This document shows positions 1 to 50,989 of a stretch of DNA of 59,622 bases, piece by piece (position 1 is the first letter of the stretch; each line of letters begins with the position of its first letter). The stretch comes from Nemertoderma westbladi (Eukaryota; Animalia; Xenacoelomorpha). Location: contig JAUCBJ010006787.1 of NCBI GenBank assembly GCA_032718475.1, positions 1 through 59,622 of the forward strand, written 5' to 3'. The notes under the pieces were generated by a model. The model had not been told where the DNA came from, searched no databases, and saw only the letters and a list, made by a program, of their open reading frames with translations. The position numbers and the translations under genes are program-made.

Positions 1-1260
1 GCGCTTTCGAAGACCTTTAGCAGTTTAACCTGCCAAAATTTATATGTCTTTTCGTTAATTAAAACCACTTTAGCATACGACAATAATTTATGCTAATACG
101 CAAAACATTAGCCGAAGTCAGCCCATGCGCGATCATTCACCCGATGGATCTACACCCGGGAGACTGAATTCGGATGCTTGAATTGTATTATTACAGTGTA
201 AGGTTGCAGTGTATACCTAATGTATTATTCGATAGATCGTTAATAATTAATCTCTGACAGATATTATTGGCTTTCGGGAAATATTAACAGTTCCTTTAGG
301 ACGTGGCGCTTTATCTATTTAAACAGAACTAAGACTTATACTAAAACGCAACGATACTGCTTATGATTAAAGTATAAAGCGTATTCTTTAGGAAATACTT
401 TGTTACCAATCACAATCATACACACTATTCTGCCGACAGTCAGTATATTTGATCACACATAAAGAGAGCAGTAATTGACTCACGTAGGGTCTGCTAAATA
501 ACATTGGATTCAATACACACCACATTAATATAAATCGCAATTGTTATATATAGCCGGTCTCTCTAACCTGTAGTGTTATCAAGAAAATTGGGAATTGGGT
601 GATTTATCCGTATTATCCAAATAGCAATATTTCCATCAACAAATATTTACAATTAATAACTGACGGTAAAATAACAGTACAAACAATATGATTAATGAGT
701 TAGTATCAAGATTAGTTAATGAGTATGATTATCAAGTTAAATTAGTTCGTTAAGTTAGGTAACAGTTTATACTTTCGATAATTCAAGCAGTTTACGGTAC
801 AGCAGTATCTATCCAAAAAATGCCGGTGTTTCTGGCTTAGACAGCAATAACAACAAAGTATCAACTCTAAAACAGTAAGACAGAACACTCTCCTTATGAT
901 CGGCAGGAAAGCTACACGTCGACAGGAAAAACCGCCCTGATTGGCCCAAGCCAAACAAAGAACCACGCGGCCAATGGCTGTTTCCATGTCAGCAACCAGC
1001 TGCTAGATGTCGTAATATGAATCATTACGGCTAAGCTGTGAAAGGTGGTTGGTGCATTACAAGTTTTTGTCTTACCATGTCCGCTAAAACACGTATATAG
1101 CAGAATTACTTTTATGTCCGTTAAAACACCTGTAAAGGTACCTTGCGGGCGAGGGGAATATATATACAGTTAGAAAACCTTTTTTAGAGTATTCCAGCGC
1201 CGGGGGGGGGAACTGGCCAGCAAAGGCAAACGTATCAGTTATCCCACAAAAGCTTTTACA
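1..1260 (-). mobile_element. LTR of Bel/Pao family 1 (diverged relative of the 34833-52185 element); left end just outside the window
   Basis: Colinear similarity to LTRs 34833-35972 and 51001-52185 (gaagacctttagcagtttaacctgccaaaatttatatgtc ... ggtaccttgcgggcgagggga ... aaaagcttttaca). Ends in ACA at 1260 and abuts LINE RT sequence, so it is inserted into the LINE. Carries a roughly 80-90 bp insertion near 1165-1240. Confidence 0.9.
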
Positions 1261-8140: not shown

Positions 8141-8319
8141 ATTGGACTGAGGGGGTTGGAATGAGGGCGAGATGCCCTACCCACACATAAAATAAAAATA
8201 AAATAAGCAAAATAATAAAATAAGTAGTTAGTACCAAGGTAAGCAGTAGGCATAATATGCTAGTGTAGGTAGTTACAATTATGTACGTCAGACGGGTACA
8301 ATAATGTACCAACGTACCT

Positions 8320-8722
8320 AATTTACATACGCACTACTTGTGGGCACTGATGGCGCCATGTGACGAACTGAGGGTGGGTATGTACGCATACCGTAGTTGA
8401 GGGGTACACAGTGCCGTAAAACTTGTGGGCACTGAGGGCGCAAGTGAGGAATAGGGGGGTATGTACGCATACAGTAGTAGAAGGGTACACAGTACCTTAA
8501 AACTTATGGGCACTGAGGGCGCCACATGAGGAATTGAGGGGGGGGGGGGGTATGTACGCATACCGTAGTTGAGGGGTAAACAGTACTGTAAAACTTGTGG
8601 GCACTGTGGGTGCCACATGAGGAATTGGGGGGTATGTACGCATACCGCAGTAGAAGGGTACACAGTACCGTAAAACTTGTGAGCACTGAGGGCGCCACGT
8701 GAGGAATTGAGGGGGGGTATCA
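8320..8722. repeat. ~82-bp minisatellite (about 4.5 units) in the post-pol spacer of element A
   Basis: Unit ggtatgtacgcataccgtagttgaggggtacacagtaccgtaaaacttgtgggcactgagggcgccacatgaggaattga; atgtacgcata recurs at 8380, 8461, 8552 and 8634. Confidence 0.92.
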
Positions 8723-9579
8723 TATGGCAGATAGGATAATAGCACAGGTAGGGGGGAATATAGACAGAATAAATTTAGGGTAAATTGACACATAAGGGGA
8801 ATATTTGTACGAAATAGGAAGAACAAGATAAGAAGAAGGGCCATCACTGATTTAAACTAATCAAGACCATACTTAGTTATCTCTTACCATCCTAAGCCTT
8901 TCCAAGGCACCACCAGTCTGGTGAGAGAGGAGAATTGTGATGGCGGAGAAGACATGAAACGGGCGAGACCGGGAGTGATGAGTCATATGACCTCTGAGAG
9001 GGGGGGGGGGGGGGGGGTTGGGGGGTTAAGAAACGTCATGTAGACGAATGTATAATATACATACTATAGTCAAGTACAACCTTTTTCCAATTAGCTACTG
9101 GGACTGGGGACTAATAGAGTAGAACAGCTTTAGACCGATCTCACTGACATGATGTACACATGCGTGGGACCCGATAAGAGTGTGGAGAGTGACAACGAAA
9201 ATTGGGGAATGGGGGAAGTATGGGGAGGAGGTGCTAGGGTGTGAGGAAGTGAAAGAAGTGCGAGATTCAAGTGTGGGGAGCGAGTATAGAGGAGGATGAG
9301 TCCCAAGGGACTGGTGAGACAAAGGGACAACAAAGTCCGCGAGGAAAATTGTGTGAGGAGTGAGGGCAATCATCTTAAACAGAGACACCAGATACCTTGG
9401 TACAACATAGCTCGCAGATGTACCAAGGATGGGTAGTGACAATAGACCCATGGGGGGCCGGCCTGGAAAGCCGACCCCGAGAAGAAAATTCCACCCCACA
9501 TCCGATATTAGATTGGAATCCAGCGGAATTGAAGTGCACTTATGGTTGATATGCTATCTTCTCACCGGGAAGATAGCAT

Positions 9580-10079: not shown

Positions 10080-13000
10080 CCATTAAGGAAGGAGAACAGT
10101 AGAGTTCATCTGGGAGGTCGATACGATACCTCATGAACATAGATATAACGCCGAAAGCGGAAGATGCAAGGAGGAACGAGGAGATGTTGCTATGGGCAAT
10201 CAGAGATGTCGAGTTAGGACGGACAGCAAACCGTCGATGCTTGAACTAGAGAGGGAGGGCCGGTAGGGTTGTATGTTGGGACATTGCCTTCGCCCCGGAG
10301 AAACACAGCCTGGCAAAATATAGCACACACCAGGAGGGGGTATAGAGTGTACTGGGACGAGGAGGATGAGAGAAGAAGGGATTGAAAGGGAAACTTTCCG
10401 TCGGAACATAGCTGCTGATTGATGATATGGTAGTCATGGGGAGGAGTACTCGGAAAATTCGAGAAGATTAAACTTCGATCCGGAGGAACACATCCAGACT
10501 GCAGGACATACTGTAGGCCTTTCTGCACATACTATAGGTCATGCTGGAAGAGATAGTATAAGCGATAGGGTAGCGCGAATGCTGGGATTGGACCCGGAGT
10601 TCGCAGCTTACATACCGGTGAGTAGGCAGGAACCTGCTAGGCCTATATGGTACCTGCACACAAGTATGACTATAATATGCATGGATATAACACATACCCA
10701 GTGGAAGGGGGGAGGGGGTATTGCAGATAGGCAGGTATTGCATGGGCCCCAATTGCATTGGCCTTAGATAGTGAATTTGGCTATCCTGCAAAGATTATCC
10801 GACAAACCTTAAGGGGAATAACATCAGGTGGACTCGCGGACAACCCTTTTAGTATCAAAACCTTAAAACAAAGTAGAAAAGGTGTTTATAGTCTTAAAGA
10901 CGCTAGAAGCGCCATACGAACTCAATGCTTTGAATAACATCACAACCATAACGCAGGCACTACTTTAACCAGATCAGTAGTCTGGTTAAGGTACAAATGG
11001 AGAAAGATCACTTTCTCTACTTTAGAGAAGAAAGATGCAGAGCCGGAGTTGGAGGAGATGTCGAACTTCCTTAACTACGAGGTGGAGTTGTTAACAGATC
11101 CAGTTTACAGTGAGCACAGTTTAGGCAAAGTACTGAAAACGGAATACAGCTGACCTAAACTGGAACATAGTGCCGCGAATACTCTTCCGAAAGTGAGGCA
11201 GTCGCTACCGTATGCGGCCACACAGTGGACTACAAGTCCACAGAGCCCTGGGAATATAGCCACATCGTGGCAGGGACAGAGACAAAACAATAACAGCCTT
11301 AGATATAAACCTAATGCCCCCAGTAGGCCGAGTCCAAACAACCAAAACACTAAACTGCTTGATATGAATCTAAACACGATACACGATGCGCTATATAAGG
11401 AACTCTACAATCCCGATTACAAATGTCAATTGCATAGAAGAGGGACGCATAAGACCATAAACTGTAAGCATTGGCAGGCGTTACTTAAACAAGACCAAAT
11501 AGTTTATACTGGAAAATTTGGACTATGTCACCGATGTGTGGTAGGAGGACACAAGAAGGATGAATATGAAGAACGTCCGATTAAGTATGCCGAGACTGAC
11601 AGAACTGGGGGAACTGGAGACAATGGCGATGAGCACCATGGAAATAAGGAGGAAGGGAACAGTACTACTCGGAGTAGTACCATTAAGAATGATTGGAGAA
11701 AACGGACTATCGATTACAACGCTAATGTTAGTCGATAGTGGAGCAGCGTTCACGCTAATGGAGAGTTAGGTGGCCGAGAAAATAGGATTGAAGACCAGGC
11801 CAAGTAAAATGGCGGTGATGACAATATCAAGCAAGGACGATGTCATGAAGATGAGGATGGGATGGTGTGAAATCGGAGCAATAACACTAGGGTGCAAATT
11901 ACGGGGCTACCATCGAACCCATCCAAATAATGGAGTCGATTAAAATCAACGCCAGGTGACCTACAAAGATCGAGATCGAAAAATATCGGTAACTCAATGG
12001 CATCAACTTCTCCGTGCCCGAACTAGATGTCCCGAAAGTCACTCTCATACTCGGCATGGATTGTCTGACGGCCCATGAGAGGCTACAAACCATATTTGGC
12101 GACGTCAGAGAGTGAGACCTGGTGGCCATTCTGACACCATTCGGATGGACTCTCAGTGGCCCAATAAAGACGAGGATCCCGTTTAGCATATCTGAATCTT
12201 CAGGGTGCATGTTCGCGGGAACGATGAGAGAGATGAAGGATGAAGGGGCGGAGGAACAACTCAAAAGGCTGATACAGCATGATTTTGAGGGGTTAAAGGA
12301 GACCAGGGTAGGAACCTTGGTAGAGGACAAACAGGCGCAGGAGAGCATCAGGAGGAAGTGTGACGGGGGGGGGGGGGGGGGGTGGAATACCATAGGAATG
12401 GTATGGAAGGAGCCGAAGGTACCCCTACCAAACAATCCAAAACTAATCCCAACTAACATCCAAACTACCAAACCATTGGCATCTGCCAAGACAAATGGCA
12501 AAAGCTTAAACAATTACCTACTAGAAGGCCCCAATATTTACAACTCGGTGATAGAAGTTCCTGTTGAGGTTTAGAAATGGAAAACACTCCTTCATGTGCG
12601 ACATCGAGGGCATGTTTAACCAAGTGCGGGTAACTGAGGAGGATAGCGATAGTCAACGCTTCCTTTGGTACAACAGTGACGAAGAACTGTCAGATATACC
12701 AATGTACAAGATGGTGTTACAGAATATGGGGGCCAACTCATCCTCAATCACCACAACTACGGCCATAAGAGATACAGTGGAGGGCAATGAGGGGGAGTAT
12801 AGCAGAGAGGCGATTGATATGATTCCACATGGGTTCTACGTGGATGATGTGATGGGTTCTTGCAACTCCATTGAGGAGTTCATCGAGATGGGGCATGAAG
12901 TTTGTGACATCCTGAAGAAATCGGGATTCAACTTGACGAAGTTCCAGTCAAACTCAAAGGAATTCATGGAAGCCATAGAGGATAAACAACCGGAGGTAAA

Positions 13001-14236
13001 ATCGGATAAACCTATGGTGGTAAAGGAACAGATTATGGTGGACAGAAGAGTAGAATCACAGCAGAAAGCACTAGGGATCGTATGGAACCGGGAGACAGAT
13101 GAGTTGGAATATCAACTGAGTCAGGAGGGTGCCGGGGTCCATACCAAGCGAGGCTATGTATCATACATAGCGATGATTTACGATCCACTAGTGTTAGCAT
13201 CCCCATTGTTAGTCACGGGGAAGCAGATACTTAAGAAGGTTTACAAGATCAAAGATGAATGGTAGGCGGAAGTCCCGATAGAGATATGTAAACAGTGGGA
13301 GAAATTGACAGGGGCTTAGAAGATATGGGAACTTACTACAGTATGCCGCGTGTATACTTCCTGGATGGAGACATGATTGAATTGGAACTGCATATGTTTT
13401 CTGATGTGCTTTATTTGGTACAGTGGAAGGGGAGTCATAAACCCAGACTAGCGTTCAGTAAAGCGAGGTCGACGTCACCAGATTCAGCATCAGTACCGAA
13501 ACTCGAGCTAACGGATGTGAGACTAGGAGTGAGAGCGACAGCATACTTGGTGGATACGATGCCAATTATAGTGGAATCACACTACTGGATGGATTCCATG
13601 ATAGTGTTGGGATGGTTGCATAACGAAAATACCCGATATCCCATATTCGTAGTGAATCGAGTGAACGAGATAAGAGCAACAACAGACTTGGACAAGTGGA
13701 AACGCGTACAACGCCACGCTTTCTCGAGAAAGCAAGAGTTGTGGCAGCATGGTTCACACTTCCTCAATGACAGGTCGAAGTGGCCATTGATGAGGAAAGT
13801 AGTTCCAACCAGAGAGGAAGTAATAGTAGAGGATGAGGGAACCGAATCGGAGGGGGGAGAAATGTTTAGCCAGTTATTGAGGGAGATTAATGAGGCACCA
13901 CCACGATCTAAGACGATAGAGTTGCGTGATAATCCAACAGATAGGTTACTCAGTTACAGCTCGAGTTGGTATAAGATGAAGAAGCTAGTGGCATACCTGA
14001 GGGCTTATGGAGAATTCCTTAGGGGGGCTGGTATGGGCATCAAGATAACACCCACCATTGATCTGGAAGGGGTGGCTAAAACCATGATACGATACGAACA
14101 AGGGAAGGGATACGGAGACAAAGTTGACCGTATTAGGCAACGCCTTCGTCCGGACAGCGAGATAGATGGAAAGATCAGATCCGTGGAGGTTAGAATTGGA
14201 GGAAAGATTGTGCAAAAGATAGGAAGACCTACATGA
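10080..14236 (+). pseudogene. Decayed Bel/Pao gag-pol (element B, family 2); most of the integrase deleted
   Basis: Gag knuckle remnants (CQLHRRGTHKTINC, LCHRCVVGGH), protease LVDSGA, TPFGW, RT SLNNYLLEGP / CDIEGMFNQV / FYVDD, YDPL, RNase H HMFSD..PKLEL..WMDS, then a jump to the C-terminal DGKIRSVEV. Many stops and frameshifts. Confidence 0.92.
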
Positions 14237-15219
14237 GGTAGGTAGGAGGGCACGTCCTAATTAGTTGAGTCGCGAGGGCGAGATGCCCTTCCCACACACA
14301 AAAACAAAACATAAAAATAATAAAAATAAAAACATAAATACGTACCAAGGTATATATAATTTAATTTAGGTAGGCATTATGTATGTCTGATGGGTATGAA
14401 TGTACCAATGTACATAATATTTGGTGTAGGTAGTTATAATCACGTACGTGGGATGGGTATGAATGAACCAAGGTACATAATTTACATACGCACCAAAATG
14501 CCAGGTCAATGGGACCAATATCAGTATATGATATGTACAGTAGTAGAATTAGAAGTGTACATAGTACCATAGTGAGGATTAGAAGGGTATATATTTTATG
14601 ATGGGCACAATATGCCAACGTAAGTAATAAATACCAAAATGCCAGGTCAATGGGACCAATAATAGTGCGTAATACGTACTACAGTAGGCACTGAGGGCAC
14701 CACGTTAGGATTTGAAGGGGGTGGGTAAGTAGGCGTAGTAGAATAGATTGTGTGTGTGTAGGCCGCACGAACTAGACTACTGTAGTGCATAGCCCATAGT
14801 ACAGACTTCGAGTATTGTTACAGAGCCAGAAAGCTGTCTGGTAGGAAGCTAGTACAACAATAAGAACATTGTAGCTAGTCTTTTTTGTAAACAAGTAGTG
14901 ATGAATTACTTATGTAAGTAATTGGGTAATAGGTAGAGTAATAGCATATAATTTGAAGAATATAGCATAATAGTAAAAATAAGAAAAATTGTGTCAACCA
15001 GGGTACTAGAAAATTCTAGAAACATAAATAAAAGTAATGGACAAAATTATAAATTAGGAGTAAAATTGGCACATAAGGGGAATATTTGTACAAAACATTG
15101 GCAAAAAGCAGATAGGAGGTAGGTCATCACTGATTTAAACTAATTAAAACCATACTTAGTTATCTCTAGCCCTACTGAGCCTTTGTAATGCACCACCAGT
15201 CTGGTGAGAGAGGAGAATC

Positions 15220-17378
15220 GTGATGGTGGAGAAACTAGTGAAGAAGAGGAAGTCGGAGAGGAGCGGGAAGGAACTACTAGTGGATTTCACGTTGAGACAT
15301 CCTCAGAATAAGACAAGGGAATACTACAAACGACTTCTGAAGAGTCAGAAAGCGCACGTGCTGCAAGATCAGTTTAGGGAGATGCACAAGCGACGACTGG
15401 TCACGATCTACGGGATGCCGTCGTTGGATAATGCGATCGATGAGTATCTTAGCTACATTGTAAAGGGGGACGAGGGTACTTTCGGCATACCAAAGTATAT
15501 GAGGGAACCACCTAGAAAGGAATGGAGTCAGTTTGTAGATTCTGTGGAGAGGGAGGATATATGGTCCTGGACGACGAGGGGACTGTAAAGGATGATGAAG
15601 GGCTGAGGAGGGGGTCAGGAGGGTCGGGTAGAAATATATTGCTGCATTTAGTGGTGCTGAACGGAGATATTTTTCTATTTGACATAGGGACCTACGGTAA
15701 GAAGAGCGAGCCAAAGTTGAACCATCTACCAGATGTGGTGCAGAAGCTAAGGTCAAAGACTATGATGAAGGTTGGATTGGCGATACGCGATGACACAGAG
15801 AGGATTATTGGACCAGGCACCCCGAATCTTCTGAACATGCGGGTAGTCTACATGGCTATGACGAAACCGGATGGATTGGGATTGGTGGACAACACAGGAC
15901 AATACGGAGCTGTGGCAAAGGGTCAGTTGATGGGACTCGTGTGCCACAAGCCGATGGAGTGGAACAAGTTCCAAGAGGAATACGGGGCAGAACTCAAGTG
16001 GGGAGCGAGACCGGGAAAGGAAGAGTTATATCACTTCCGGAAGGGGGCGATAAAGATATATCAGAAGAGATATGTCCTACAGGAGGACTGGATAATGATA
16101 GCACCCGAGGCAGAAGGGCGAGTCGGTGTTTTACAATACCTGACACCAGGTGGACAGAGAAGTAGACACACCGTACAGATGATGGAAGAAATGTGAGGCG
16201 GATAGAGAGGAGGAAAGAAAGCTAGAGGAAGTCACCAGGAAAGAGAGGAGGGAGGCAGCAGGTAGAGAGGCAGATATAAGGGGAGGGGAATATGATTTGA
16301 GGCCCAAGATTTGGATGAGTTGAGACCTCAGGTACATTCCGGCTAGGGGATGAGGTGGATTGGATGGAAGAGACACCAATACAGTCTACATCTGGACTGC
16401 AGGGAATGCCGATACATGGGGGGTCCGAGGGCGACTTTGGCAGGAAGAGGCCAAGAGCGATGGAGGAGTGGAGCGTTACAGGCGAGTACCAGGCCGGGAA
16501 GGGACATGGTGGATCAACAGGGATCCCGGGTTTGGGGCCGCTCGTGGCAGAGGAAGTAGAGGGGGACGAGATTGGGGAGATGCCGCCGATAGAGAGGATC
16601 GGCCAGGCGGACACGGTCTGGGTGGGCGGGAGAGTGGTGACAGCCAGCGGGGTGAGAGCCTTGGACACCCGGCAAGCGAGCCTTGGAGCACAGGGAGCCG
16701 GTGACGAACTTCCCAGCGAACATGATTCGGCTAGGTAAGCAACTGGGTACATCACCACAGTAGTGTTTGGGGAGACGATGCCGAGGGAGGAGGACATTGA
16801 CATGGGTAGGGAGGACAAGGTTGAAATGTTCACCTATTAGTGGTTCCATAGACCCAGGAGGCTATCCGGAGCCAAGGACGAGTTAGGGCGAGAGACAGTG
16901 ATATATGGTTGCGAGTACTGTGGGAGACTAACCCATCAGCAGAAGAATGGTCTGTATCGCTACCAGAAGTGGGCGACATGCCTATATTGCCACAGGTCTA
17001 CCCATTGGATGGGGGGCGTACCCAAGGCTGCACCACAGGTATTCGAAGTGTAAGTTTAGGGGGCATTTTGAGCATCAGTGCGACTGGATGGATAATGAGG
17101 AGAAGATCCATATTTACGAGGACTGGGTCAATGTCAGGGTCATTACTAGGCAAAGGATGAAGGCCCAGGAGTTCCCGTGGGGTTTTTTCAACATCAATCT
17201 ACCGGCCCATCTGAAGATTACTAAGAGGAGACTAGCATTCATATATCAGGAGGTAATGACAGCGGCATCACATGGTGGTGTTATTAACACCCAAAGATAT
17301 CTAGACATATGGTCGCCAGAGAACATGATGAAATTCAGGAAATTTCTGGTGGAGCATGTGCCGCGACGCGTGAGATGA
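15220..17378 (+). pseudogene. Accessory gene copy 2: DEDDy-like exonuclease plus tandem CCHC knuckles, downstream of element B pol
   Basis: ORF 15522-16196: MVLDDEG (ExoI DxE), LPDVVQKLRSKTMMKVGLAIRDD (ExoII), CHKP, YQKRYVLQED (ExoIII). Region 16905-17090 across frameshifts: CEYCGRLTH, CLYCHRSTH, YPRLHHRYSKCKFRGHFEHQC, then IYEDW...PWGFF. Confidence 0.8.
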
Positions 17379-18163: not shown

Positions 18164-19004
18164 TGTAAAAGCTTTGAAGAACATCTGATGGCCTTAGTTA
18201 TAAGAACGTAAATCTATTAACTTGTCATTTGACTTAACTCATTTCATATCGCATTTCATATAACTGAACACATACTGACTGTTCACCGCACTGTTTTAAT
18301 GCTGTTTTATATTGTGTTAATTGCTGTTTATATTGTGTTAATTGCTGTTTATATTAATGGATGTTATATTTGGAGAATACTGATAAATAATCGTAAACCC
18401 CTCAATCTTCTTGATACTGAGGTAAGTGGAGGAAGAGTCTACCGGTAGCAACTGTGACTCAAATTATAGTGGTTTTTTGTGTGAATTAAATGCTATTTCA
18501 TAATCCCTATGTGTGTCAGTTGCAATTCTCCCTTATATATGATAAAAATTAGTGACGGTTGGCAAATTAGTGTAAATTAGTGTGAAGTAGTGTGAAGTAG
18601 TATGAAGTCATATGAAGGTTAATAAAGCATCTCCTAAAGAATGCGCTATTTACGAAACTCCGTGGCCATCTAGTTGTGATTAGTGTAAGTCATAACTCTG
18701 TTTTTATACTTAAAGCGCATCGTCCTAAAGGAACTGTTAATATTTCCCCGAAAGTAAATATAGTTGTCAGAGATTATATAGTAGCAATCAATCGAATAAT
18801 ACAAAGTGGCCTACACCGCAATAACTTCCTAGGGAACCCGAATCCAGTCTCCCACACCGTGGGTCATACGCCGCGCACGGACTGGCTTCGGCGGATGTAA
18901 CTTCAGTACACCAGGTAATTGGTAAGGGCTAAAGTCGATTCATAATCAAAAGGACATTTTTAAAATTGGCAGGTTAAACTGCTAAAGGTCTAAAAGCGCG
19001 AACA
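18164..19004 (+). mobile_element. 5' LTR of a truncated family-1 Bel/Pao element (U3 internally deleted)
   Basis: Starts TGTAAAAGCTTT and ends ggcaggttaaactgctaaaggtctaaaagcgcgaACA, matching the reverse complement of LTR 51001-52185. Confidence 0.85.
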
Positions 19005-20101
19005 TTAATAGATTTTCATTCTTATTGCCCAGTAGGCAATAAACCCAAAACGTACTGGTAGGACGGTAAACTGGAGGCCTGATCCGAACTGGTACTTACA
19101 GGTACAACAGTATTAGTTCGATTGTGATAATTATATATACCGGTAGGTCTTAATATTTAATCGGGGACTGCAGCCCTGGTTTTTATTAGGATTTTACTTA
19201 TTTCTGTCAGTTTTATTTATCTGTAAGTGTAATATTGAGCAGAAGGCGTGTAAGCCTGCTCAGATTGTATAAATAATTTGTAGGCCGGATTGTTGTCTAA
19301 CTGTTGTTAGGTCTGAGGCGATTGCAGTGTATGTAGAGTGTCTGTCCGATAAAGTGCTAGTTAGGAAGGTGGAGGCATCCAGTGCTGTAAGGTAAATCCC
19401 CCACGAAAGAATAAGTCGTACTACGTAGTTAGAACGCTTACTAACTAACCATTTCGGAGATTGCATATACTGTGGTTTATTTAGGCTTGACAGTAGTCTG
19501 CCAGCATTTGGTCTGTGTTTTATTTGAATAGTATGTACGGGTAGCGTAATAATTATTATTCAGAGTTTATGCAAGTATTTGCAACCTACATCTCCCCAAG
19601 TTTATTCCTTACAGTAATTATGCTTGTTATGCATACTGTTATAGTTAAAGTAACCCCGGTACTACTTCAGGACTGCTTGGCGTAGGACAGACTGGTGATT
19701 TTGTGCTCCGGTCACTCCAGCAGATACCGTGGTTCTTTTGGATGTTCACGTATATTTAACTGCTAGTTATATGTTGTATAAGTACTTGTACCTAATTTAG
19801 GGTTTAGAGTACAGTGCTTTCCTGAAAGTGATTTAGTGTGTAGGCAGTATATTTGTGTTGTAACGTGGTTAATAGGTCTGTTTGCTCTGGTAGGCTTCGA
19901 TAATTAACCTCTAGGTATAGGACACTCCGGGTACATAATGTAGTGCTTATAGTGTAAGACTATAAGCCGTCAGACATTTCCTTATCTGGACAACGCAACG
20001 TACTTAATACTACTTTATTGGTTTCAAATGCCGTAATTTCCTGTCAGATTGTAAGAACCAGAAATTCTAACTCCTTGTTAGTCTGGTTTGTAAATTTCTT
20101 G
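19005..20101 (+). mobile_element. 5' leader of the truncated family-1 element
   Basis: Colinear with the reverse complement of about 49480-51000 (e.g. tgtgctccggtcactccagcagat, gtacttgtacctaatttagggtt); cut off by the TTAA insertion at 20102. Confidence 0.85.
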
Positions 20102-20105
20102 TTAA

Positions 20106-23084: not shown

Positions 23085-24320
23085 TATTCTCGCTTATTCT
23101 CAAATCTGATTGGCTAAACAATAGGGTGATATAACTGTATATCACCCAGCTAAAGCCAAAATACCCAATGTAACTACTATAATAACACTCCTAATACAAA
23201 ATTCTAGAACTTACACATTTATTGTTGTGTTTTAGACATTATTTTTGCACAGTCTTCCCAATGTTGAAAGAATTTATATCCATTCCCAACTGATTTAAAT
23301 CACTTTTGTAGCTAATAGGAATATAAAAGTTGCCAACCTGGAGCTAATATTGAAGTCCGCACTATACTGTAGTATAGCCTGTATGACCGTTTTTTGAAAA
23401 TTTTGCATCATCGTTTCGGTTAGAGTTCCGTATAGCACCACATTTATAAATCATATATCATTGATAAAATGGCAACATTGAGGAGTTGCAGAACAATATA
23501 AAAGTATTATATACTATTCTAGAATATAAATACAATAAAAAATTTAATGTTCTAGAACGTATAGCTAGTTTTTTTATTTTAACATTGCTAGTAAATTAAA
23601 ATGAAATATTTTTAAGTAAATTTCCTAATACTTTAAACTGAATATTGATAAAGTTTTTATGGGTTTATTTTTTTTCTTTTTATGTTTTTTTTTTAGTATT
23701 GAGTTTTTTTATTGAAATTTTTATTTTGAGTTTTATCACAAAAAATGATCACACACTGGCTGTACTACATACAGTACAGTATTATTACTGCAGTGCCTAA
23801 ATTCGTCATAAGATGACTTTCAGCAAACCCAGTAATATAAAGAGATTTGAAGAATATGCTTCCGGTGACAGAAAGCAACACTTCTTGCTAAACATCAAAG
23901 ACAGTCAAAACACGAAAACAGCAACAATTCCCATCAATTATAATTAGTAGTTATCTAGGTCTACAAGTAACAATTGCTTGTTCTGACTTAATATTAAATG
24001 AAATTGAACCCTTATCCCTACAATTGTTAATGTTCGGACAACTTGGAGGGAGGGGGGGGGGGGGGGGGGAGGGTTGCAAGGGTGTGTTTGTTTTAGTGGG
24101 GTCTGCGTTTCCCCAAACGTGAAAGATGAAAGAAGCTCATAAAATTTATCAGCGCAATAAGCTCTAATATACATGATAAACATATTATCATCGCCTGTCC
24201 CAGGTGATATACGGTTATAAAACCTTCAGCAAATAAATCATGTATAACTACTTCGGCCTGCGGCCTCAGTAATTATACGACTTATTTGCTTCAGGTTTTA
24301 TAACCGTATATCACCTATAA
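23085..24320. mobile_element. Probable non-autonomous DNA element (Crypton-like structure) with a long terminal hairpin
   Basis: Left palindrome gggtgatataactgtatatcaccc; right hairpin 24202-24316 with a perfect 24-bp outer stem and a tcggcctgcggcctc centre that contains the same sequence. Class assigned from recalled structure only. Confidence 0.45.
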
Positions 24321-26296: not shown

Positions 26297-26528
26297 GTGG
26301 ATCGGATTGATTAATTAGGATAATCAATTAAACCCTAATTAGGAGTCGTAAGACACCTATTAGGGTTTAATTGTACTAATTAATTGATGACACCTGTCAA
26401 TTAGGGTCTAATTAGCCTAATTAGGAGGTGTCACCCAGACAGTCTGGCACCAATGACACCCAATGACACCCTATGGGTGTTAATAGGGTGTCATATGACA
26501 CCCAATGGGTGTCAGTGGGGTCCAACTG

Positions 26529-28100: not shown

Positions 28101-28455
28101 TTTGCCCTAGTAAGAGGGTCTATGCAGCTACAGGTGGCACCTCCCTTATGCTGCATGGAGGTGGCAAGTTTTCTTGATCAACGACCTAGAATACCTGACC
28201 TGCCTGAATTATTCAGGGCGATCTTAACATTAATATTCTTATTCAAAAGGCACCTACTTCCAAGGAACTACTCTCTAAAATAGACACGCTTGGCCTAACA
28301 ACCCACAACAAAACTGAACCGACACTGTACAGTAAGACATCTGCAAACCTTATAGACATCGTAATATTAAATTTTGTACAGCATGTAATAAAATAATGTA
28401 ATTTATTCCCATGTTTTTACTCAGATCATGAATACACAATACTTACACTTACATC

Positions 28456-30915
28456 TACTACTACTACTTCTAGGTCGAGCGAACTCGGACAGTGGAAATG
28501 AGATCCTTCCAGGCTTCCCGATTCTCCATAGTTGTCGCAAATTCGTTATCAGTTCAGTATCCCTTTCAAGTTGATATGTTATGGCCGGTCGTCCACGACT
28601 ACGCTTTCCATGAGTTGGTTGCCAGAAAAGTAGATCTGGTATGACCTCGTCTTTACTTCGCCAACAGTGCCCATTGAATCTTAATCTGCGTTTGCGGAGG
28701 GTGGTTGATACAGGTGGTATTGTACCATAAAGCTCGGCGTTTGTCATGTGTTGTCTCCAGCTGATGTTTAGGGCTGCCCTTAGTAGTCTTGTGTAGCAAC
28801 CATCAATTCGTTGTTCAAGTGATTTAGTCAGTGTCCAGGTCTCACCCCCATATAAAAATACACTTTCCACTGTAGCTCGAAAGAACTTAGTCTTCAGGTG
28901 CCTGGAGAGATCTGATTTCCAGATGGTATCCATTTTTGATAGAGCTACCCAAGCCTTTGCTTTCCTAACTTCTATGTCCTTTTTGCTACTCTCTATCCAT
29001 GATCCAAGGTACTGGAAGTCATCGACCTTCCTTAGTTGATTATTATCAATGGTTGTCAAGTTTCCATCAACATTAAAGGTCATGAATTCGGTCTTTGTAG
29101 CATTTATATGCAATCCAACCTCCCTAGCAGCCCTCTCCACTCCATCCAGCAGAAGCTGTGCATCTGCTAGGGCATTAGAGAGCAGGGCGATGTCATTCGC
29201 AAAGTCGGTGTCTGTGACTGTAGTTGCCGGATAACTACTACTTCTGCGTTCTTGAAGTGTGAATCCCAGGTCTTCACCCTTTGTGGCCGTCCTCATTGCG
29301 TAATCCAGCACAATTACAAATAGTAATGGTGCTAATGTGTCACCTTGAGGTACGCCAGCCAGGATTGAGAAAAACTCAGTTTCACCATCTGGTGAGAGTA
29401 CCTGCGCTTCTGTGTCACAATATAACAATCCAATGCCAGCAACAATTACTTCTGGTATTCCATAAGCTCGTAGGATTTCAAGCATTTTACCTCTATGGAT
29501 GGAGTCGAATGCCTTCTTGAAGTCCACAAAAGTCATGACAGCGGGGAGATTCTTTGACTTAATTCCTTCAATCAGTCTCCGTAGTGCAAGTATCTGAGCT
29601 ATTGTTGATCTACTTGGTCGAAATCCGTTTTGGCTCTTACGCAGTAGTTTCTCTATGTGAGGCCTAATCCTATATAGAAACATTTTATTGTATATTTTGG
29701 CAGCTACCACAAGCAGACATCCCACGATAGTTTGTTGGTATGCCGAGGTCTCCTTTCTTGGGGAGAGGCTTTAGTTGAGCTTTAGTCCAAATTAGTGGTG
29801 GCTTTTCCCCTTTTAACATCCGGTTGCAAACATTCAATAATGGTCTGTTTAGCACTCCGGTTTTCCATACCTCCGCTGGGATTTCATCTAATCCACTCGC
29901 TTTATTATTGGACATGCTTTTAATGCTTCTTTGGAGTTCGGCAGGTGTGAAGTCCCCTGTTTCTATAGGTAGTGTCTTGTCATATATTTTCTTTGTAGGG
30001 CTGACCTCGATGTTTGGTGGCTGCCCAAGCAAGTTGCTGAAGTGATTTTTCCACTTCCCAACACGTTCTGCAGGACTATCGGCTTTGAGGCGCCCCTTTG
30101 CACAACTTTTCCGACCAGATACCTCATTTACACTTTGCCAGGTAAGTCTTGATTGTTGCTGTATGTGAGCAGTTGTAATTGCTTCAGTTTTATCCTGTAT
30201 GTACTTTTCCTGGCTGATGTTGTAGGCCAATTTAAGATCGTCCTTAGCTTTCTTAACCTTGTTAATGTTTTCGGTTGTTGGTTGTTCGGTTTTAACTTTG
30301 TAGGCTATCTTAAGATCTTCTCTCTTACAAGTAACCTCAGAGTTTTGCCATGATACATATTGTTTTCGTTTGGGTTTCTGGGGGATATGCCTCTTAGCTG
30401 ATTCCTTGTGGGCTGTTATTATATTCTGGTATATTGAATTGGTGGATTGGTCTTCATCCATTGACTGAAGTGCTTCAAAGCGGTTTTGAACTTCTACTGT
30501 ATAAGCATCCTTTACAGCATTGTCAGTTCTGAGTTTTTCCCAGTCATATTTGATTTGCTTGCTTGTCCTGGGTTTGCTGGCTCTCAAGCTGGGTCTGATC
30601 TCTGCAGTCACAATTCTGTGGTCCGAACCAATTAGGTTGAACGAGTTGTATGCCTCGCAGTTGATCATGCTGTTTCTCCACTTTTTGTTTATGAGGATGT
30701 TGAAAGGTCCATAGCTTCCCCTTACTCTTTTCGAATGTGTTGTTTGTTGGTATCAATTCACATTCTTCCATTAGGTCTAAAAGTAAGTACCCATTTCTGT
30801 TAGAACTGGTGTTATAGGTGTAACCCTTGATGTCTTCTGGGCCAATTTGGGCATTCAGGTCACCAGCAATGACTTTAACATTGTCTTTCGGAATGTCCTT
30901 TATAAGTCCAGTCAG
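28456..30915 (-). mobile_element. 5'-truncated RTE-like LINE (EN-RT pseudogene) with (AGT)n tail
   Basis: ORFs 30544-30936, 29685-30668 and 28421-29725 join across small deletions; QNGFRPSRS, FVDFKKAFDS, GVPQGD, DFAND (FADD with D>N), FQYLGS; 3' tail gaagtagtagtagtag. Confidence 0.95.
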
Positions 30916-30919
30916 TTCT

Positions 30920-34832: not shown

Positions 34833-35972
34833 TGTACGCGCTTTTGAAGACCTTTAGCAGTTTAACCTGCCAAAATTTATATGTCTTTTGGTTTATAAAT
34901 AGACTTTAGAAAATGACAAGTATTTAATACCAAGAAACACAACATTAGCCGAAGCCAGCCTAGTGCGCGTCCATTCACCCGCTGGATATACCCGGGAGAC
35001 TGGATTCGGAGGGCTTAGATTGTTATTGCAGTGTAAGCTTACTGTATTATTCGATTGATCGTTAATAAATAATTTCTGACTAATATTATTCACTTTCGGG
35101 AAATATTAACAGTTCCTTTAGGACGTGGCGCTCTATCTAGGTAAACAGAGATATGACTTATACTAAACACAACGGTAAGTCGGTAAGGCTTATGATTCAC
35201 GTATGAGGCGCATTCTTTAGGAAATGCTTAGTTATCAGTCACAATCATGCACACTACCGGTAACACACAATAATGCACACTAATTTGCCGACCGTCAATG
35301 AATTTTATCATATAAAGAGAACAGCAATTGACTCATGTAGTGCTTATCAAATAGCATTAAACTCACTACAAACCACAATAATATAAGTCGCAATCGCTAT
35401 ATGTAACCCGTCTCTCTAACCTGTTCTCCAAATAATATTCAACCAACTGATACAAAATAATAACAACAGTAAAAAGCATTAAGACGGTAGGTTAAGATAT
35501 GATATGATAATGTATGTGCCGTTAAGACTGGACTGATAACAGTTATACGCTCTATAATCTAAGCCTACTAATGTTTCTTCTAAAGTCTGAAACGAATTGA
35601 CTCTAGAGCCGGTGTTCCTGGCCTAGATAGAAACAACACAACAGTATCAAGAAAAACAGTAAGACTGAACACTCCTAGCACGATCTGCCGAAAATCTCCA
35701 CATCGACAGTAAAAATCGCCCTGATTGGCTGTTAAGCTAAACAAAGAACCATGTGTCCAATGGCCGTTTCCATGTCAGCAACCAGCTGTTAGATGTTGTA
35801 ATCTGAATCATCAAGGCTAAGCTGTGCCAGAGTATTTGACGCATTGCGGGTTTTATGCCTAACCATGTCCGCCAAAGCACACATACAGAAGAATGACTTT
35901 TATGTCCGTTAAAACACCTATAATGGTACCTTGCGGGCGAGGGGACTGATTATATCCGCAAAAGCTTTTACA
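34833..35972 (-). repeat. 3' LTR (1140 bp)
   Basis: Direct repeat of 51001-52185; by eye about 7 substitutions, a 2-bp indel and a 43-bp deletion. Confidence 0.96.
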
Positions 35973-35982
35973 CCGCTCCCTA
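35973..35982 (-). other. Polypurine tract
   Basis: Sense strand TAGGGAGCGG directly precedes the TGTAAAAGC start of the 3' LTR. Confidence 0.7.
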
Positions 35983-36005
35983 ATATATGTAAATACTCTA
36001 AACAG

Positions 36006-37776
36006 TTAGTCTTTTTTGCGCGGACGGCGTTTACGCAGTTTTTTAAAGCTGGCCAGAGTCCTTTTCTCTTTGGGGCGAGCCACTTTACAAGGAGGGCTAT
36101 AACTCCTGGGTGAAGGGTGCAATATAATTGCATCAGAGGGTGTAGGATTATGGTCGGTGTATCCGCCAGTCGAAGTGCCGGGTTGATTGACATCAACGTC
36201 GGGGGAGAGGGGTCTAACGGCTTTGAGAGCGCGTTTTAAGACAGCCGCTCTTACGGGTCCTTTACGAGTGGTCTGAACGAGAGCCGTGGGTGGACCATAG
36301 GCAGTTAGAAACCTCCGGGGTTTAATGGTTCTTTCCAACTCGCGTTCGCGGGCTCGGTATTCGTAAGGCCGTCGATATACTTCCTGTAACTCGGGGTGTG
36401 AGTTAACAAATAAGTCTCCATAGTCCGGATCCTGACGGATATAATTGATTAAGTTATAGGAATGAAGGTCGCTAGGATTAACACTCCTGAGAAATTTGCG
36501 TACGAACTTGGTTGAAATACATTCTCCGACGTGCTTCAGTAGTTCGTAACTCGATATGCGTGATTTCTGTTCGACAGAAGCGAATAGATAAGGATGGAAC
36601 GCATAAATTCCTTCGTAAGCGCGTCCAGGATAATAACGATGGCGCGAATCACAATGTAAATCAGCGTTCGCTTCCCAAGCTCTGATGTAACGTAGTGTGA
36701 TCATTTCATCTATGCTTTCCAAATCGTGATTAAAAGGGCAATCGAAAGCGTCCCTTTAGTTGACAATGGTGACATTGAGTCATAAATTGAGGGCAAACCG
36801 CAAAAATGTGCAAGTTATTGAGTCTGCAATATGCGCAATAGATTTCCATCGTAGGTTGTTCTTGGAAATAGGAACAGCGGACGTTTGTGTCCATGGGCGT
36901 AACATGGTCTCTCGATGCGCATAACCGACAACGTTGCCTAGAAATATAGTTGGCATGTCGATAATCGTACGCAGTGAGACACTGTGGACCTTGATACCAT
37001 TCTAGGATGTAATCGTTGTCGCTGTTCCGGGGCGCGATAGGTTGAATCTCCTCAGATTCTAGGCATATTGGTTCGTCTTCCCAGTGCATAGCTGAGGTGG
37101 GCGTGTCTGTCTCTTCAAGTGGACCTATTGTCTGAATTTCCACGACCGAATAACCTGTGGGGATTCGAGGTCTTTGTATAACAGAGGAGTGCAAGTTCGA
37201 TATACAAATCTCTTTGAAAATGGCAAATCCAGCGCTATCTAACTTCTCTGCAGCTGAGTTTCTTAGGCTGAGCTTGATCAAAGCGTGGTCTTTAAATTGG
37301 CTATCCACGTTGCGGAACGGGGTTAAAAATTGCCGGAAACATTCGAAGCGGATGAATTTATTATGTTCATCTAGCTTAGCGAGTTTGGTCCCAAGTATTA
37401 ATGGATGGTCGCGTATAGTACGACTGCACACATCGGCTAGCCAACCGGCAAGTGCGGTGTTTTCAAATATCGTGTAGATAGCTAAGGAGGGACGGAGTGG
37501 AACACTCATGAAGCTATACACGGCGCCAGTTGCGGTCAATGGTCCATCAAAGTATAATCGAGAATAATGGTCTCCGTATACTTGTTGATAGTTGATGGGA
37601 TTTCCGACTTTGAAATTCCATCCGTATTCCTGAAAGGCAAGATGTCCGATGGAAGTTCGTTGCACCTTTGTAATGTTGCTGGACGTATTAGCATACATGG
37701 TGCGAAAGAAACCTCGGCCTTCTGCCCATGGAGCAATCAGCTGAGTATCTACGAAAGGATATGGGATATTTTCCAT
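36006..37776 (-). pseudogene. Accessory gene copy 3: C-terminal half of the exonuclease-like domain, CCHC knuckles and basic tail (two ORFs split by a frameshift)
   Basis: FVDTQ..SIGHLA..NFK..YQQVYG..IYTIFE aligns with copy 4 (CVDTQ..GIGYLA..DFKP..YNKIYG..IYVVME); CRLCASRDH, CAYCRLNNLHIFAVCP, CHHCQLKG[fs]AFDC; ends KKLRKRRPRKKD. ExoI/II not recognisable upstream. Confidence 0.75.
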
Positions 37777-38769
37777 ATTCCAAAAGTCGTTTGCCTAATA
37801 TGTCTTCCATTGATGGTAGTGGTAGAGAGCAGGGGAAGACCTATGTCGTATTCAGAAATATTCAGAAATACGATCTCAGTTCTCAGTTGGAGGATTCAAT
37901 CGTTCGAAGACTATCTCCAAATGAATTTATCCCTAGTGCGAGGAGGTAAACACCAGTTCAAGGATATGTTTGTCTCAGTTGTTCTACATAAGATTTATAT
38001 CTCTAATCATTGAGGGAGGTGAACAACCAGATTTATGACACATAATGGTACCAGTTGTTCACAAACAATCTGCGTGTCCTTTCAGTCCTTGTTTGTATCA
38101 CGGTTGTGGACTTAAGGAAATTATTGATGGTTGATTTTCTAATCAACAACGAGAGGGTGGAAGTTGATATCATAAATATCAACAGAATGTGACATGGACA
38201 AGAGGTGCGGACACCAATATGAGCATCCAGATTAACAGTAAGGGATGGGAGGTTTAGTAAGAGGCGGTATGATCAATACCACGATACGGCAATGATTGGT
38301 CGATCGTCTCCCAAAGCTCGGAGCGCGTTGGGAAGAGAAGGTGGGACGAAGTATGTTGTATTTTCAATAGCGATGTATAGAGTGATAAAGGGAGTAAAGA
38401 GGAAAAAGGATATATGGTAGTATCTATAAGATACCACAATGGACATGTTTCCGTCACATCATCATTCATTCTTGCCCTTTAATTGTGACACTGATCACAA
38501 TAATTACAGGAAAACGATGAAGGAAGAGAAAATTACAGCCTCCCGAAGGAGACCGCCCGCGAGCACCCGTGCCCCGGGGAAAACTATTCACATTATGGAC
38601 CCTGGACATTAACCCATGTCTCTTCTCCAGTGTTCTCCTCTATTTGTCTTTACTAGCTTTCTTCCACGTTCTATCTTTCGAGTTGTTTTCGAATAAAATT
38701 CTCGTGTTCCATTCTCGGTTCATCATGCCGACTCCGCTGGGTATGATATTTAAATAGAACCATTTCCCT

Positions 38770-39048
38770 TTAGGTGTCTCCATCGTCCGTATCATGTAAA
38801 TCGATAGGATGGCCGGTAGTTAAGAAGTCCATATACGTACCATTACGATTCGTATAGCGAGCGGTGAATTTTCGATAGTCCAATTCACGCGCAAGTTGCT
38901 CTTGGGACATCGGCGGTTCGATATAACGACCATCGTCCTCCGTAATGGTTGGATCGGCTTCACCGCGTATTAAGCTATCCACAAATGCTTGTAAAGGTAG
39001 AGTATATCGCTCCCTAATACCAAGATCATCTTCTATCAACTCCGTCAT
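38770..39048 (-). CDS. 92-aa ORF, possibly the N-terminus of the accessory gene
   Basis: ATG-initiated, same strand and upstream of copy 3, protein-like composition; no recognisable motif. Confidence 0.3.
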   Translation of the reverse strand: MTELIEDDLGIRERYTLPLQAFVDSLIRGEADPTITEDDGRYIEPPMSQEQLARELDYRKFTARYTNRNGTYMDFLTTGHPIDLHDTDDGDT

Positions 39049-40488
39049 ATCTGCTATCTGAGTTTATTAATATCAAAATGAGTTTATGTTTAGGCTAGCG
39101 GGCGTCGCTGCCTACCTCTCGTTGCCCCCGGACAGTGGGATTCTCAGCGCCGATGTACCGTCGTCGCGGTGTTTACGCCAACATGTAGCAACAGCACGAC
39201 AACGATAACCGGCACAAGTCACTCCACTGTCCGTCCCAAAGGCTTGGATCCATTTTAGGTTCTTTCTATAGGAGAGTTGGGTTACTTTTACAATTGCGAC
39301 TAGCTACTGTAAACATACTTTAGCAGTAACATTACACCTATAAACGCACAAATTCCACACAACTGTCACCAATTGTACACATACAGGCCATTTGTCCGTT
39401 AGTCAGTGCCTTCCAGAATGTCACGTTATTACTGTGTATCCTTGGATACTAACAGGGTGCTATGTATTCTCTATGCTATGCAATGGGACAAGCTTTCTAT
39501 TGTTCTTTTAACTTGCTTCTAATTCTAGCGTGGGTGTTGCTATGGTGACATTATGGAAAGCTAGCGGTAGAATTAGGGTAATTCTCATGCATACAGATCT
39601 GGAATGCTATTTAATAGTAATTCTTTAATTGTCAATATCCTCTTTATACATGATTTTATTAATTTTATTGGCTATTGACTATATGTCGGAGATTCTCGCA
39701 CTCTAATACACTCAATATGATGAATCTCCGCTCCCATGATCTATTAATTAATGGAATTTTGGGAATGTTATAAATTGCACAAAATGACAATTTATGAAAT
39801 TCATTTAAAATATGAATTTAAATTTATTCCCGTGAATTTTATTATTTGATGTTAATATTGACACAATTTTTATTCCAGAGCATGTCTGGCGACCTAGGAT
39901 CCTTAATTCTATAAAATTGTCTTTTAAGAGTATCGGTAAGTACTGCGATATCTTAATCGACTAGAAATTTTAAAGGATCTGAATTTTACAAAATTTTAAT
40001 AAATATTAAATTAATATTTAAGATGGGTACCAATTTATTCCAGAACTTGTCTGGGGACGTTAACCACTGATTCTAGAATTTGTCTTTCAAGTATATCGGT
40101 GGGTGCCGCGATATCTTAATCGACTAGAATTACAGATGGTCAAAAGGTTTAACAGATTTATTTGCGTTTTTACGCTACTGTTAGAGGGACATCACGCTAC
40201 TATATGTATTATTTAATATAAGGTAGAAGAGCAATATCGCACGAAGCAATGTCAGTGTGAAGAGGCAAGTCGTTTCCAAGGTCTACCCAGAGCTTGGTTT
40301 AGCCGAGACACGAGGATCTGAACTTTGCATTCCTAATACTCTGCCTACCAATAATACTTGAATATAGTAGTGGCTTTATTGTACTTTAATAAGTACAGAC
40401 ATTTCATCTTACTGTAGTCACGTATTTATAATATGATACGGACAGTAAGGAAAGAGAAAAATTATTTCTCGCCGTCACACTAAATATA

Positions 40489-43400: not shown

Positions 43401-44907
43401 GGTCTTCTACCGGTATCGCTTCCAGAAACTCACGGGAGTTGCTAGTGAATTTTGTCAGTCGAAATCCACCTCTTTTCAAACACTCTACCGTTCCTTTCGC
43501 GACATCAATGGCTTCTTCTTCTACTGATGGAAGGGACCTTAAATTATCGTCCATGTATATATTACGCTTGATGTTGTCTATCACCTCTTTTGAGAAGGCG
43601 TCTCGGTTGTCATTCGCAGTGGTCCGCACCACGGAGCAGGCGTTGGAAGGGCTTGATATGATCCCAAAAGCCTGGATGGTCATCCAGTACTCTACCGGTT
43701 TCTGGTTGAGATCTCCTTCAGGCCACCACAGAAATCTCAGGCTGTCTCTATCTCTATCCAGCGCCTTGACTTGTAAGAACATTCCTTCTATATCGGAGGC
43801 GAACGCGATGGAATATTGTCTTAATCTTAAAAGTATTCCCAACAAAGATTGGAGTAAGTTGGGTCCTGGTAACAACTCGGAATTAAGGGATTGGCCCATA
43901 TATAGAGCGGAGCCATCGAATACGACTCGTACTTCGTGGGGTTTACCGGGTTTGGGAACGTAATGATGTGTTAAGTAATACGTTCTCTCAGTCACTGGTG
44001 TTCCTTCCGGTACTCGCTCCGCGTATCCCTTTGTTATAAATTTCTTCAACTGAGTTTGGTACATTTCTTTAGCTGAAGCATTAGCCGTAAGGCGTCGATG
44101 TAATTGAGCGATTCTTTTCTCTGCCAAGGGTCTGTTATTTATAAATCTAGGTTCTCGTTTTCGAAATGGTAGGCCGATTTCATATCTACCTTGGTCCTTT
44201 AAAAAACGTGTAGTTGTTTCCTGGATTTGCTTGGGTCTTTCTTCTTCTATCGATAGGGCCTTATCATATGAATTGGGCTCTACCAGTTCTTGAGTAAAGA
44301 ATCGTACGGCGAGTTCGTCCCGAGTTCTAGTGTTGTAGCGCTCTATCTCATCATTTAGTTCGTCATTGTAATCAATGGGTCCCGATGGGCGAATCAGTTG
44401 ACATAGGTTCACCTGGTTTTTCCACGTTTTGTTTTCTGTAAGTAGGTCGATTGTGTTCTCTTCATCGAAGAGTTGGTAGATGTCGTCATTATCTGAGGAG
44501 TATGGTGTTCCCTCAGTTAGTTCTTCCACCCCACTGCTCTCCACTTCCCAATCGTTTACTTGGTATATTCGTTCTTGTGGCATTCTCTCTTCGAGAGTTT
44601 TGCGGGAAGGGCCAGTAAAGTACCAACCTACTCTAGTTCTTACCGCATAGGTTTGCAGTGGCTGCGGTTGAGCAGGCCGTTTCTCCAATGTCTCGAGCGC
44701 CTCATGCGCGTTTTGGCCGATGAGTATTTGCACTCCAGGATAATCTGTCTGGAATCGAGGTATCTTAAGATGTTGGATGCTCTCATCCTCGTCCCAATTA
44801 TAAAGGTCTGCTTGGGTAGTAGCGAAGTTCTTTATAGCCACCATTTTTACCGACCTTATACCTTGTGCTCCTAATTTATCCTGGGGGGTGGACACTGGAC
44901 AACACAC
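40489..44907 (-). pseudogene. pol: Bel/Pao pol (RT, RNase H, integrase) with an in-frame TAG at 40885-40887
   Basis: VRVVFDGS, SLNSELLPGP, DIEGMFLQV, YMDD, FDPLG, FGDAS, RAEL, WTNA (usual D is N), NPADIASRG, HHCC, GVDLFGP / SDKGTNF / WERLI; reading continues in frame after the stop as DDGLVRSVELV..RPVGRLCLL. Confidence 0.95.
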
Positions 44908-50600: not shown

Positions 50601-50774
50601 ATCTGATCAGACTTACACGTCTTCAGCTCAATATTAACTTACATGTAAATAAAACCGACAGAAATAAGTAAAATCTCAATAAAAAAACCAGGGCGGCCAT
50701 TCCCTGATTAAGTACTAAGACCTACCGATATACAATAATCAAAATCGAATAATACTAATGTACTTATACTGGAA

Positions 50775-50938
50775 GTACCGGTTAGGACAGTTGGGCCTAC
50801 AGACCTACAGCAGTACCGATTCTGGCAGTTGGGCCTACGGACCTACAGCAGTACCGGTTCAAGCAGTTGGGCCTACGGACCTACAGCAGTACCGATTCTG
50901 GCAGTTGGGCCTACGGACCTACGGCAGTACCGGTTCAG
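50775..50938. repeat. 38-bp minisatellite, 4 units alternating between two variants
   Basis: cagttgggcctac at 50788, 50826, 50864 and 50902; units end alternately in gattctgg and ggttca(a/g)g. Confidence 0.93.
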
Positions 50939-50989
50939 GTTTACCGGTTGACGGTACTTTCAACTTTATTGCTTACTGCAATAAAGACA

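Follow-up and report, generated by a model that had tools for sequence, protein, structure and literature searches.

What primes reverse transcription in a retrotransposon whose long terminal repeat (LTR) is followed by neither a TGG nor a match to a transfer RNA (tRNA)? The question is raised by a 59,622-nt stretch of Nemertoderma westbladi DNA (contig JAUCBJ010006787.1; hereafter the window, meaning the whole stretch analysed), which is eukaryotic and repeat-rich and in which self-comparison detected four related LTRs. These belong to a full-length element (copy A, 34833-52185, minus strand), a truncated one (copy B, plus strand) and an LTR of a third subfamily (copy C, minus strand). Judged by its Pol, which we take as the criterion of membership, copy A is a BEL/Pao element. 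We propose that an 11-nt piece of the element's own RNA, rather than a tRNA, would prime reverse transcription in a Tf1-like manner and be copied into the primer site in each cycle, a reading to which we assign a probability of roughly 0.78.

The LTR of copy B carries the 11-mer AAATCTATTAA (18210-18220, plus strand), the predicted self-primer, and the position of the primer-binding site is occupied by TTAATAGATTT (19005-19015, plus strand), its exact reverse complement, without TGG; each of the two is found once in the window. Copy A has the corresponding pair, ATAACTGTTAT in the 5' LTR (51749-51759, minus strand; with a second copy in the 3' LTR at 35536-35546), likewise the predicted self-primer, and ATAACAGTTAT at the primer-binding-site position (50990-51000, minus strand), the exact complement of 51759-51749. 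Both primer-site 11-mers begin at +1 after the terminal CA of the LTR, so that an exact 11-bp match at +1 is present in 2/2 copies having both parts inside the window, and in both copies contiguous pairing ends at 11 bp on either side. The two LTR 11-mers differ from each other at positions 2, 4, 7 and 11, and all four differences are mirrored in the primer site, all as Watson-Crick pairs with no wobble. The copy B 11-mer is not palindromic; that of copy A is, except at its centre. An original prediction made from the letters of the window had claimed this exact complementarity, the four mirrored differences in 11, the arrest of pairing at exactly 11 bp in the second copy and the lack of a palindrome there, and direct comparison confirmed every one of these points. 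No TGG follows the LTR in A or B, and no tRNA or Rfam match was found within the window.

The prediction also took the two LTR sites to be homologous, and the alignments bear this out. The 60 nt around the 11-mer of copy B align best to positions 377-391 of the copy A LTR (the 12 best scores being 47-50, against a mean of 23.7 and a standard deviation of 6.4 across the entire A LTR), the 11-mers occupy the same columns of a multiple alignment, and no sign was seen that 18210-18220 and 51749-51759 are non-homologous. Under a dinucleotide model, the chance of the copy B match is 2.2e-6 per site, 1.9e-3 anywhere in the LTR and 2.5e-5 within +-5 of a fixed place. As an empirical background, 180/58,411 of the 11-mers in the window are preceded by their complement within 1,200 nt, and none of 100 shuffles of the post-LTR letters matched as well, for A and for B alike. 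Had the primer site changed independently, the mirrored pattern would be expected with a probability of ~1e-5, by a hand estimate from the 67.5% LTR identity. The 11-bp match is real and well above chance. Upstream of the 11-mer the duplex seemed to continue beyond a 3x3 loop; this extension was rejected, as 192/1,166 (A) and 34/822 (B) other LTR 12-mers do equally well; the 11-bp limit therefore stands.

The original prediction ascribed the duplex to selection or to the mechanism of replication. That alternative is supported as a whole, and within it we infer that replication is the better explanation than selection on the duplex, because the 11-mer drifts at the rate of the LTR around it (7/11 identical between A and B, compared with 607/899 for the LTR), its partner follows without wobble, and its length is fixed. 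By analogy with Tf1, the 11-mer would anneal across a loop of 750-780 nt to a primer site placed by folding between a stem closing the 3' domain of the LTR and a hairpin of the leader, RNase H would probably cleave it on its 3' side, and it would then be extended into the LTR. Plus-strand synthesis would copy the primer and thereby rewrite the daughter primer site from the 11-mer, so that a mutation in the 11-mer would be mirrored within about two cycles with no selection on the pair. Such copying would account for exact Watson-Crick mirroring, for free drift of the letters and for fixed length. It would also mean that the four changes should not be counted as selected events independent of one another, and hence that a covariation count of the R-scape type, the check that had been suggested, would overstate the evidence for RNA structure.

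The LTR of copy C holds its own 11-mer, ATAAACTGTTA (760-770, minus strand), and the primer site that this 11-mer (770-760) requires, predicted beforehand, was found in contigs of 3/4 sequencing runs (X1, X3, X4 and X5) whose variants were mapped on the LTR/leader junction of copy A. This complementary site, read from loose contig ends before 50992 together with fitting letters, occurs in X1 (11 contigs), X5 (1) and X4 (1), and in none of the X3 rows listed. A fourth type of primer site, present in X1 (11 contigs) and X3 (4), lies behind an LTR end resembling that of B; 3/11 of its letters differ from B and 4/11 from A. Among A-type contigs no variant is listed at 50991-51000 and one is listed at 50990, where it occurs in one contig with a depth of 2.2; positions +13 and +14, outside the 11-nt site, do vary. 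With four primer-site sequences in one genome, a fixed host primer is unlikely, and 3/3 of the testable ones match an LTR 11-mer. That a host RNA, either a tRNA half or another small RNA, primes the element, with the LTR match being either a relic or a coincidence, is accordingly very improbable in our view, even though tRNA priming is given for the family by the International Committee on Taxonomy of Viruses (ICTV; PMC8742986), half-tRNA primers exist in copia according to the accessible part of PMC6317226, and the tRNA set of the host lay outside the comparison. Contigs of the same BEL/Pao family, the C-type primer site among them, also occur in run X4, whose label names a second organism.

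An alignment of Pol led to 16 related loci (L003-L018) in GTDB species-representative contigs, with ~40% reverse transcriptase (RT) identity; they are most likely host animal DNA binned with symbiont genomes. A readable LTR pair is present in 8/16, the other 8 being unreadable. Six of the eight have an exact self-match of 11-12 nt (one contiguous, five across a predicted splice junction), one reaches 10/11 and one is tRNA-like. The contiguous match, in L005, is 11 nt long and lies at +5. In L004 (1001-1782), L009 (1001-1874), L010 (1563-3215) and L012 (in its LTRs), the exact 11-nt match exists only after a GTGAGT or GTAAGT donor is joined to a YAG acceptor within the LTR, and in L015 (4290-4698), whose LTR end is uncertain, 12 nt match at +9, again only across a donor-YAG junction. 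The matches in L005 and L015 were found after the offset had been widened beyond +4, with the sequences already seen, and their shuffles were made at the wider offset. Shuffled sequences were as good in 0/200 cases for each of L004, L005, L009 and L015, in 0/60 for L010 and L012, and in 1/200 for the imperfect L003. L004, L009 and L010 share one assembly, and L003 and L012 another. Between L004 and L009 three first-exon letters differ, and the primer sites mirror the difference. In L014, from an insect symbiont assembly, there is a TGG at +5 and no self-match. The self-matching loci fall into separate starred groups of an RT tree, with L014 outside them; the tree used 16/120 proteins and left out the short segments L013, L015, L016 and L018. 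Copy A itself is unresolved there, on a long branch among marine-invertebrate relatives and apart from L014. A scan of metagenome contigs for a conserved LTR motif gave two matches, both due to chance, and viral contigs gave 0 by LTR motif and 0 by protein.

Because the match in five relatives appears only across a GTRAGT-YAG junction, the template of the copying is RNA. This bears on the idea that template switching or gene conversion at the DNA level homogenises both sites with no role in priming: it would likewise yield exact complements, but it does not account for a length fixed at 11 nt, placed at the LTR end, and fails to explain matches that arise only on joining the splice sites, and we regard it as the least probable of the explanations considered. 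No splice-built primer with canonical donors was found in A or B. A possible intron within the LTR (donor at +169/+212, acceptor ~34 nt before the LTR end) was set aside, having motif support only and with 0/10 listed joints reading as that intron.

Could the genomic RNA instead end at the 11-mer, at a cleavage and poly(A) site in the 3' LTR, with the 3' end of the same or a co-packaged RNA serving as primer? AATAAA directly follows the matched segment in L004 and L009, and the copy B site begins with TT. Against this, none of the copies A, B and C has an AATAAA or ATTAAA upstream of its 11-mer, the copy A site begins with A, and the signal in L004 and L009 lies downstream, so that the RNA would end after the 11-mer rather than at it. 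Priming from a 3' end is very unlikely. A T|A step marks the beginning of the 11-mer in each of the copies A, B and C, and RNA polymerase II usually starts at such a step. For self-priming, the 11-mer may, like that of Tf1, form the capped 5' end of the RNA or be cut from inside it; for the window family the two are nearly balanced, and we lean slightly towards the 5' end. Splice-type relatives fit a 5'-end primer poorly, since their first exon gives only 3-6 nt and their site starts at +1 to +9.

Local folds place a closing stem around the last 130-140 nt of the LTR, directly before the primer site. In copy A it is predicted as a 6-7-bp stem (51004-51138, minus strand; z -3.2 and -3.7 for the 5' and 3' LTRs), and in copy B as a 5-bp stem present in both the minimum free energy (MFE) and centroid structures (18872-19000, plus strand, pairing 18872-18876 with 18996-19000), with a weak domain z of -0.59. 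Just 3' of the primer site, a 9-bp hairpin is predicted in A (50964-50986, minus strand; -9.2 kcal/mol) and an 8-bp hairpin in B (19022-19042, plus strand; -8.8 kcal/mol), each equalled by 0/200 shuffles, with the stretch chosen around the hairpin in both cases. A 3' duplex between leader and LTR, of 10 bp in A and of 7 bp in B, would also be possible and competes with the local hairpin, and the leader arm 50984-50975 of copy A has two possible partners. The partner sites 51138 and 51004 of the closing stem both vary in contigs, from A-T to T-A, in an unlinked manner, and copy B breaks the corresponding pair. Their matching frequencies of 46-56% are weak evidence, because several subfamily-diagnostic sites are also near 45-50%; in X4 the two stand at 85% vs 48%.

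Such conserved stems flanking the primer site, and the switch-like choice of partners open to the leader arm in A, are what one would expect if the 11-bp helix were a long-range RNA structure under selection (for packaging, dimerisation or a translation switch), with another primer at or near the same place. This rival, although the strongest, is improbable, for A and B show no wobble or one-sided change, the length is held at 11-12 nt in 8/8 exact cases, and the site lies at the LTR end, where a primer must sit, with no TGG site.

Several observations tell against self-priming. The primer helix is weak (-10.1 and -7.9 kcal/mol in A and B) and, across its loop of 750-780 nt, absent from global MFE folds. 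For an RNA that begins at the 11-mer, its pair probability does not exceed 0.05 in A and 0.01 in B; values of 0.57-0.77 are reached only for a B RNA started 15 nt upstream, falling to 0 at 30 nt upstream. The region 25-30 nt upstream of the 11-mer contains no TATA box; a TTAT motif is present instead at -11. The C-type site matches one letter beyond 11, and its test is modest, amounting to about three letters of information and a one-base shift from the A type; the contigs concerned are too short to link the site to the copy C 11-mer, and each has one difference left unplaced. One assembly is the source of three of the six exact relatives, two of the three being near-copies, and to the short first exons and variable starts described above is added the single mismatch of L003 (5615-6180), whose 10/11 match also spans a donor-YAG junction. 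The original prediction had named uncompensated changes in further subfamilies as a danger to its claim; the further subfamilies and relatives keep the match, with L003 as the one exception. A bolder reading, which we hold to be less likely than not, would have a broad group of BEL/Pao elements in marine invertebrates prime with an internal 11-nt piece, its length set by a ruler in RT and not by where transcription starts; many families would assemble the piece by host splicing, the window family being an intron-less form, and primer and site would evolve as a self-rewriting pair free of host RNA.

Copy A is 17,353 bp long and flanked by a 5-bp target duplication, AATAA. Its 5' LTR (51001-52185, minus strand; 1,185 bp) and 3' LTR (34833-35972, minus strand; 1,140 bp, with no primer site after it) both run from TG to CA, and between them there are 7 mismatches and a single gap of 45 bp; with 7 mismatches in 1,140 LTR bases, the copy is young. 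The purine-rich tract AGGGAGCGG (35973-35981, minus strand) precedes the 3' LTR. Its coding region (40885-48729, minus strand) consists, by Pfam search, of three overlapping frames: one of 558 aa without a Pfam match, a gag/protease frame with DUF1759, and a pol frame with YMDD, Peptidase_A17 (1.7e-35), Integrase_H2C2 and DUF5641, in which RT-RNase H precedes integrase. No chromodomain was found in these proteins by the same search. The closest database proteins are at most 45% identical; PF05380 is present in 120/120 of the homologues listed, and the named ones belong mainly to echinoderms and cnidarians, though a mollusc, a brachiopod and a fish are also represented. Many relatives encode a single protein of ~2,000 aa where copy A uses three frames, and one motif position of its RNase H deviates from 104/106 motif matches among relatives; from its split frames and this deviation, copy A is probably defective. 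Some 5 kb (36006-40880, minus strand) separate pol from the 3' LTR and contain frames of 354 and 249 aa with a Cys/His-rich end and no Pfam match; the 354-aa frame has no Atlas match either. Summed contig depth is 1e5-1e6 over the LTR and below 600 in the last flank bins, which suggests a very high copy number for the family, depth not being a count of copies.

The 5' LTR of copy B (18164-19004, plus strand; 841 bp, TG...CA) starts with TGTAAAAGCTTT, as do the LTRs at 52185, 35972 and 1260. Its leader (19016-20105, plus strand) is 82-83% identical to that of copy A, homology stopping at 20105, and no gag or pol of copy B was found; its assignment to the family rests on this leader and on a single LTR 67.5% identical to that of A. 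Upstream of the 11-mer there are 46 nt in the LTR of B, compared with 426 nt in that of A, ~380 nt of the upstream part being missing. The shortening within 18164-18209 lies at a CTTT microhomology and keeps the LTR terminus. The LTR of copy C (1-1260, minus strand) is truncated by the edge of the window, just a few bases short of its end. A block of ~27 nt with the core TCCTAAAGGAACTGTTAATATTTCCC (51275-51301 in A, 18722-18748 in B, and the matching place in C) is invariant in the three LTRs despite ~30% divergence, and includes 8 nt complementary to the copy A primer site.

Elsewhere in the window, two copies of a long interspersed nuclear element (LINE) at 1256-2902 and 28421-30919 (minus strand) are 94% identical and carry endonuclease and RT domains, the left one (1256-2902) being cut where the LTR of copy C begins. 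An old BEL/Pao remnant on the plus strand, strongly skewed towards G, comprises 8163-8950 with 14274-15233, together with 12419-14002; it contains tandem units (8336-8717), its flanking repeats are 72-83% identical, and for its degenerate pol (12419-14002, 34% identical to A) no readable LTR ends were found. Near-perfect palindromes of 75-165 bp at 52871-53032, 24202-24316 and 26310-26384 are possibly miniature DNA transposons.

The closest known parallel is Tf1, which has the same primer length of 11 nt and for which the available portions of the sources describe pairing of the first 11 bases with the primer site and their release by RNase H between bases 11 and 12 (PMC7175516), copying of the primer site into DNA at the cDNA's 3' end (PMC11042837) and a 'pretzel' with two flanking duplexes formed with LTR sequence (bioRxiv 2022.12.06.519325). 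From the same kind of partial texts, Tf1/Tf2 of Schizosaccharomyces pombe, Tj1, Tosmo1-3 and the Tf1/sushi group likewise have the site directly after the LTR CA, 11 nt of their own LTR complementary to it and no tRNA match (PMC7175516, PMC4600332, bioRxiv 2022.12.06.519325), and stems adjoin their primer site, as they are predicted to do in the window family. The likeness to the 'pretzel' appears partial, since the 3' flanking duplex of the window family is best predicted as a local hairpin, whereas that of Tf1, in the portion available, pairs with the LTR. Unlike Tf1, the window family has a loop of 748-784 nt, and its relatives build the 11-mer across a predicted intron. Tf1/sushi elements have a Ty3/gypsy chromovirus Pol, usually with a chromodomain, and the window family a BEL/Pao Pol. 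It would hence work like Tf1 without being a member of the Tf1/sushi group. Beyond Tf1/sushi, where self-priming is described, it is predicted for Tcn1 and for copia TAR/Houba in the parts available of PMC6317226 and PMC4600332. The prediction for the TAR/Houba/Osr-1 (Ty1/copia) and Tcn1 lineages of plants was likewise made from sequence alone, on the criterion that 10 nt or more match, beginning 0-5 nt beyond the LTR, and concerns other superfamilies and hosts in a survey of plants only (PMC6317226, as far as accessible).

ICTV describes Belpaoviridae as tRNA-primed, with a site of 18 nt that fits the 3' end of tRNA-Arg or tRNA-Gly and with a genome size of 4.2-10 kb, and states that their replication is not well understood (PMC8742986); the accessible text on Achilles, a putative 'Pao-like' element, likewise reports an 18-nt match to tRNA-Tyr (PMC4580426). 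The window family shares with this profile LTRs of 0.2-1.2 kb, the gag-pol order protease-RT-RNase H-integrase and a polypurine tract (PMC8742986), and departs from it in having an 11-nt self-match instead of the 18-nt tRNA site and 17.35 kb instead of 4.2-10 kb, copy A exceeding the range because of the ~5 kb between pol and the 3' LTR. In the parts seen of PMC3601003, PMC8220671, PMC3286476 and PMC6934838 there is no description of self-priming in BEL/Pao, and a term look-up of PMC554778 and PMC3118150, as far as their text was available, gave no occurrence of 'PBS' (primer-binding site) or 'tRNA'. The literature searched as a whole, with most subscription journals, Repbase and GyDB outside it, yielded no such description. 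The nematode element Cer7 reportedly has a self-encoded primer, which may be partial prior art. If our reading is right, self-priming would explain why tRNA-based annotation fails to find a primer site in such elements and would bear on the order in which self-priming and tRNA priming originated in LTR elements; the natural A, B and C variants would allow primer copying to be tested without altering anything. A third LTR superfamily, and an animal-only one, would then join those with self-priming, and the best reading of the comparison is that of a known mechanism in a new place, with self-priming probably occurring in a superfamily described as tRNA-primed.
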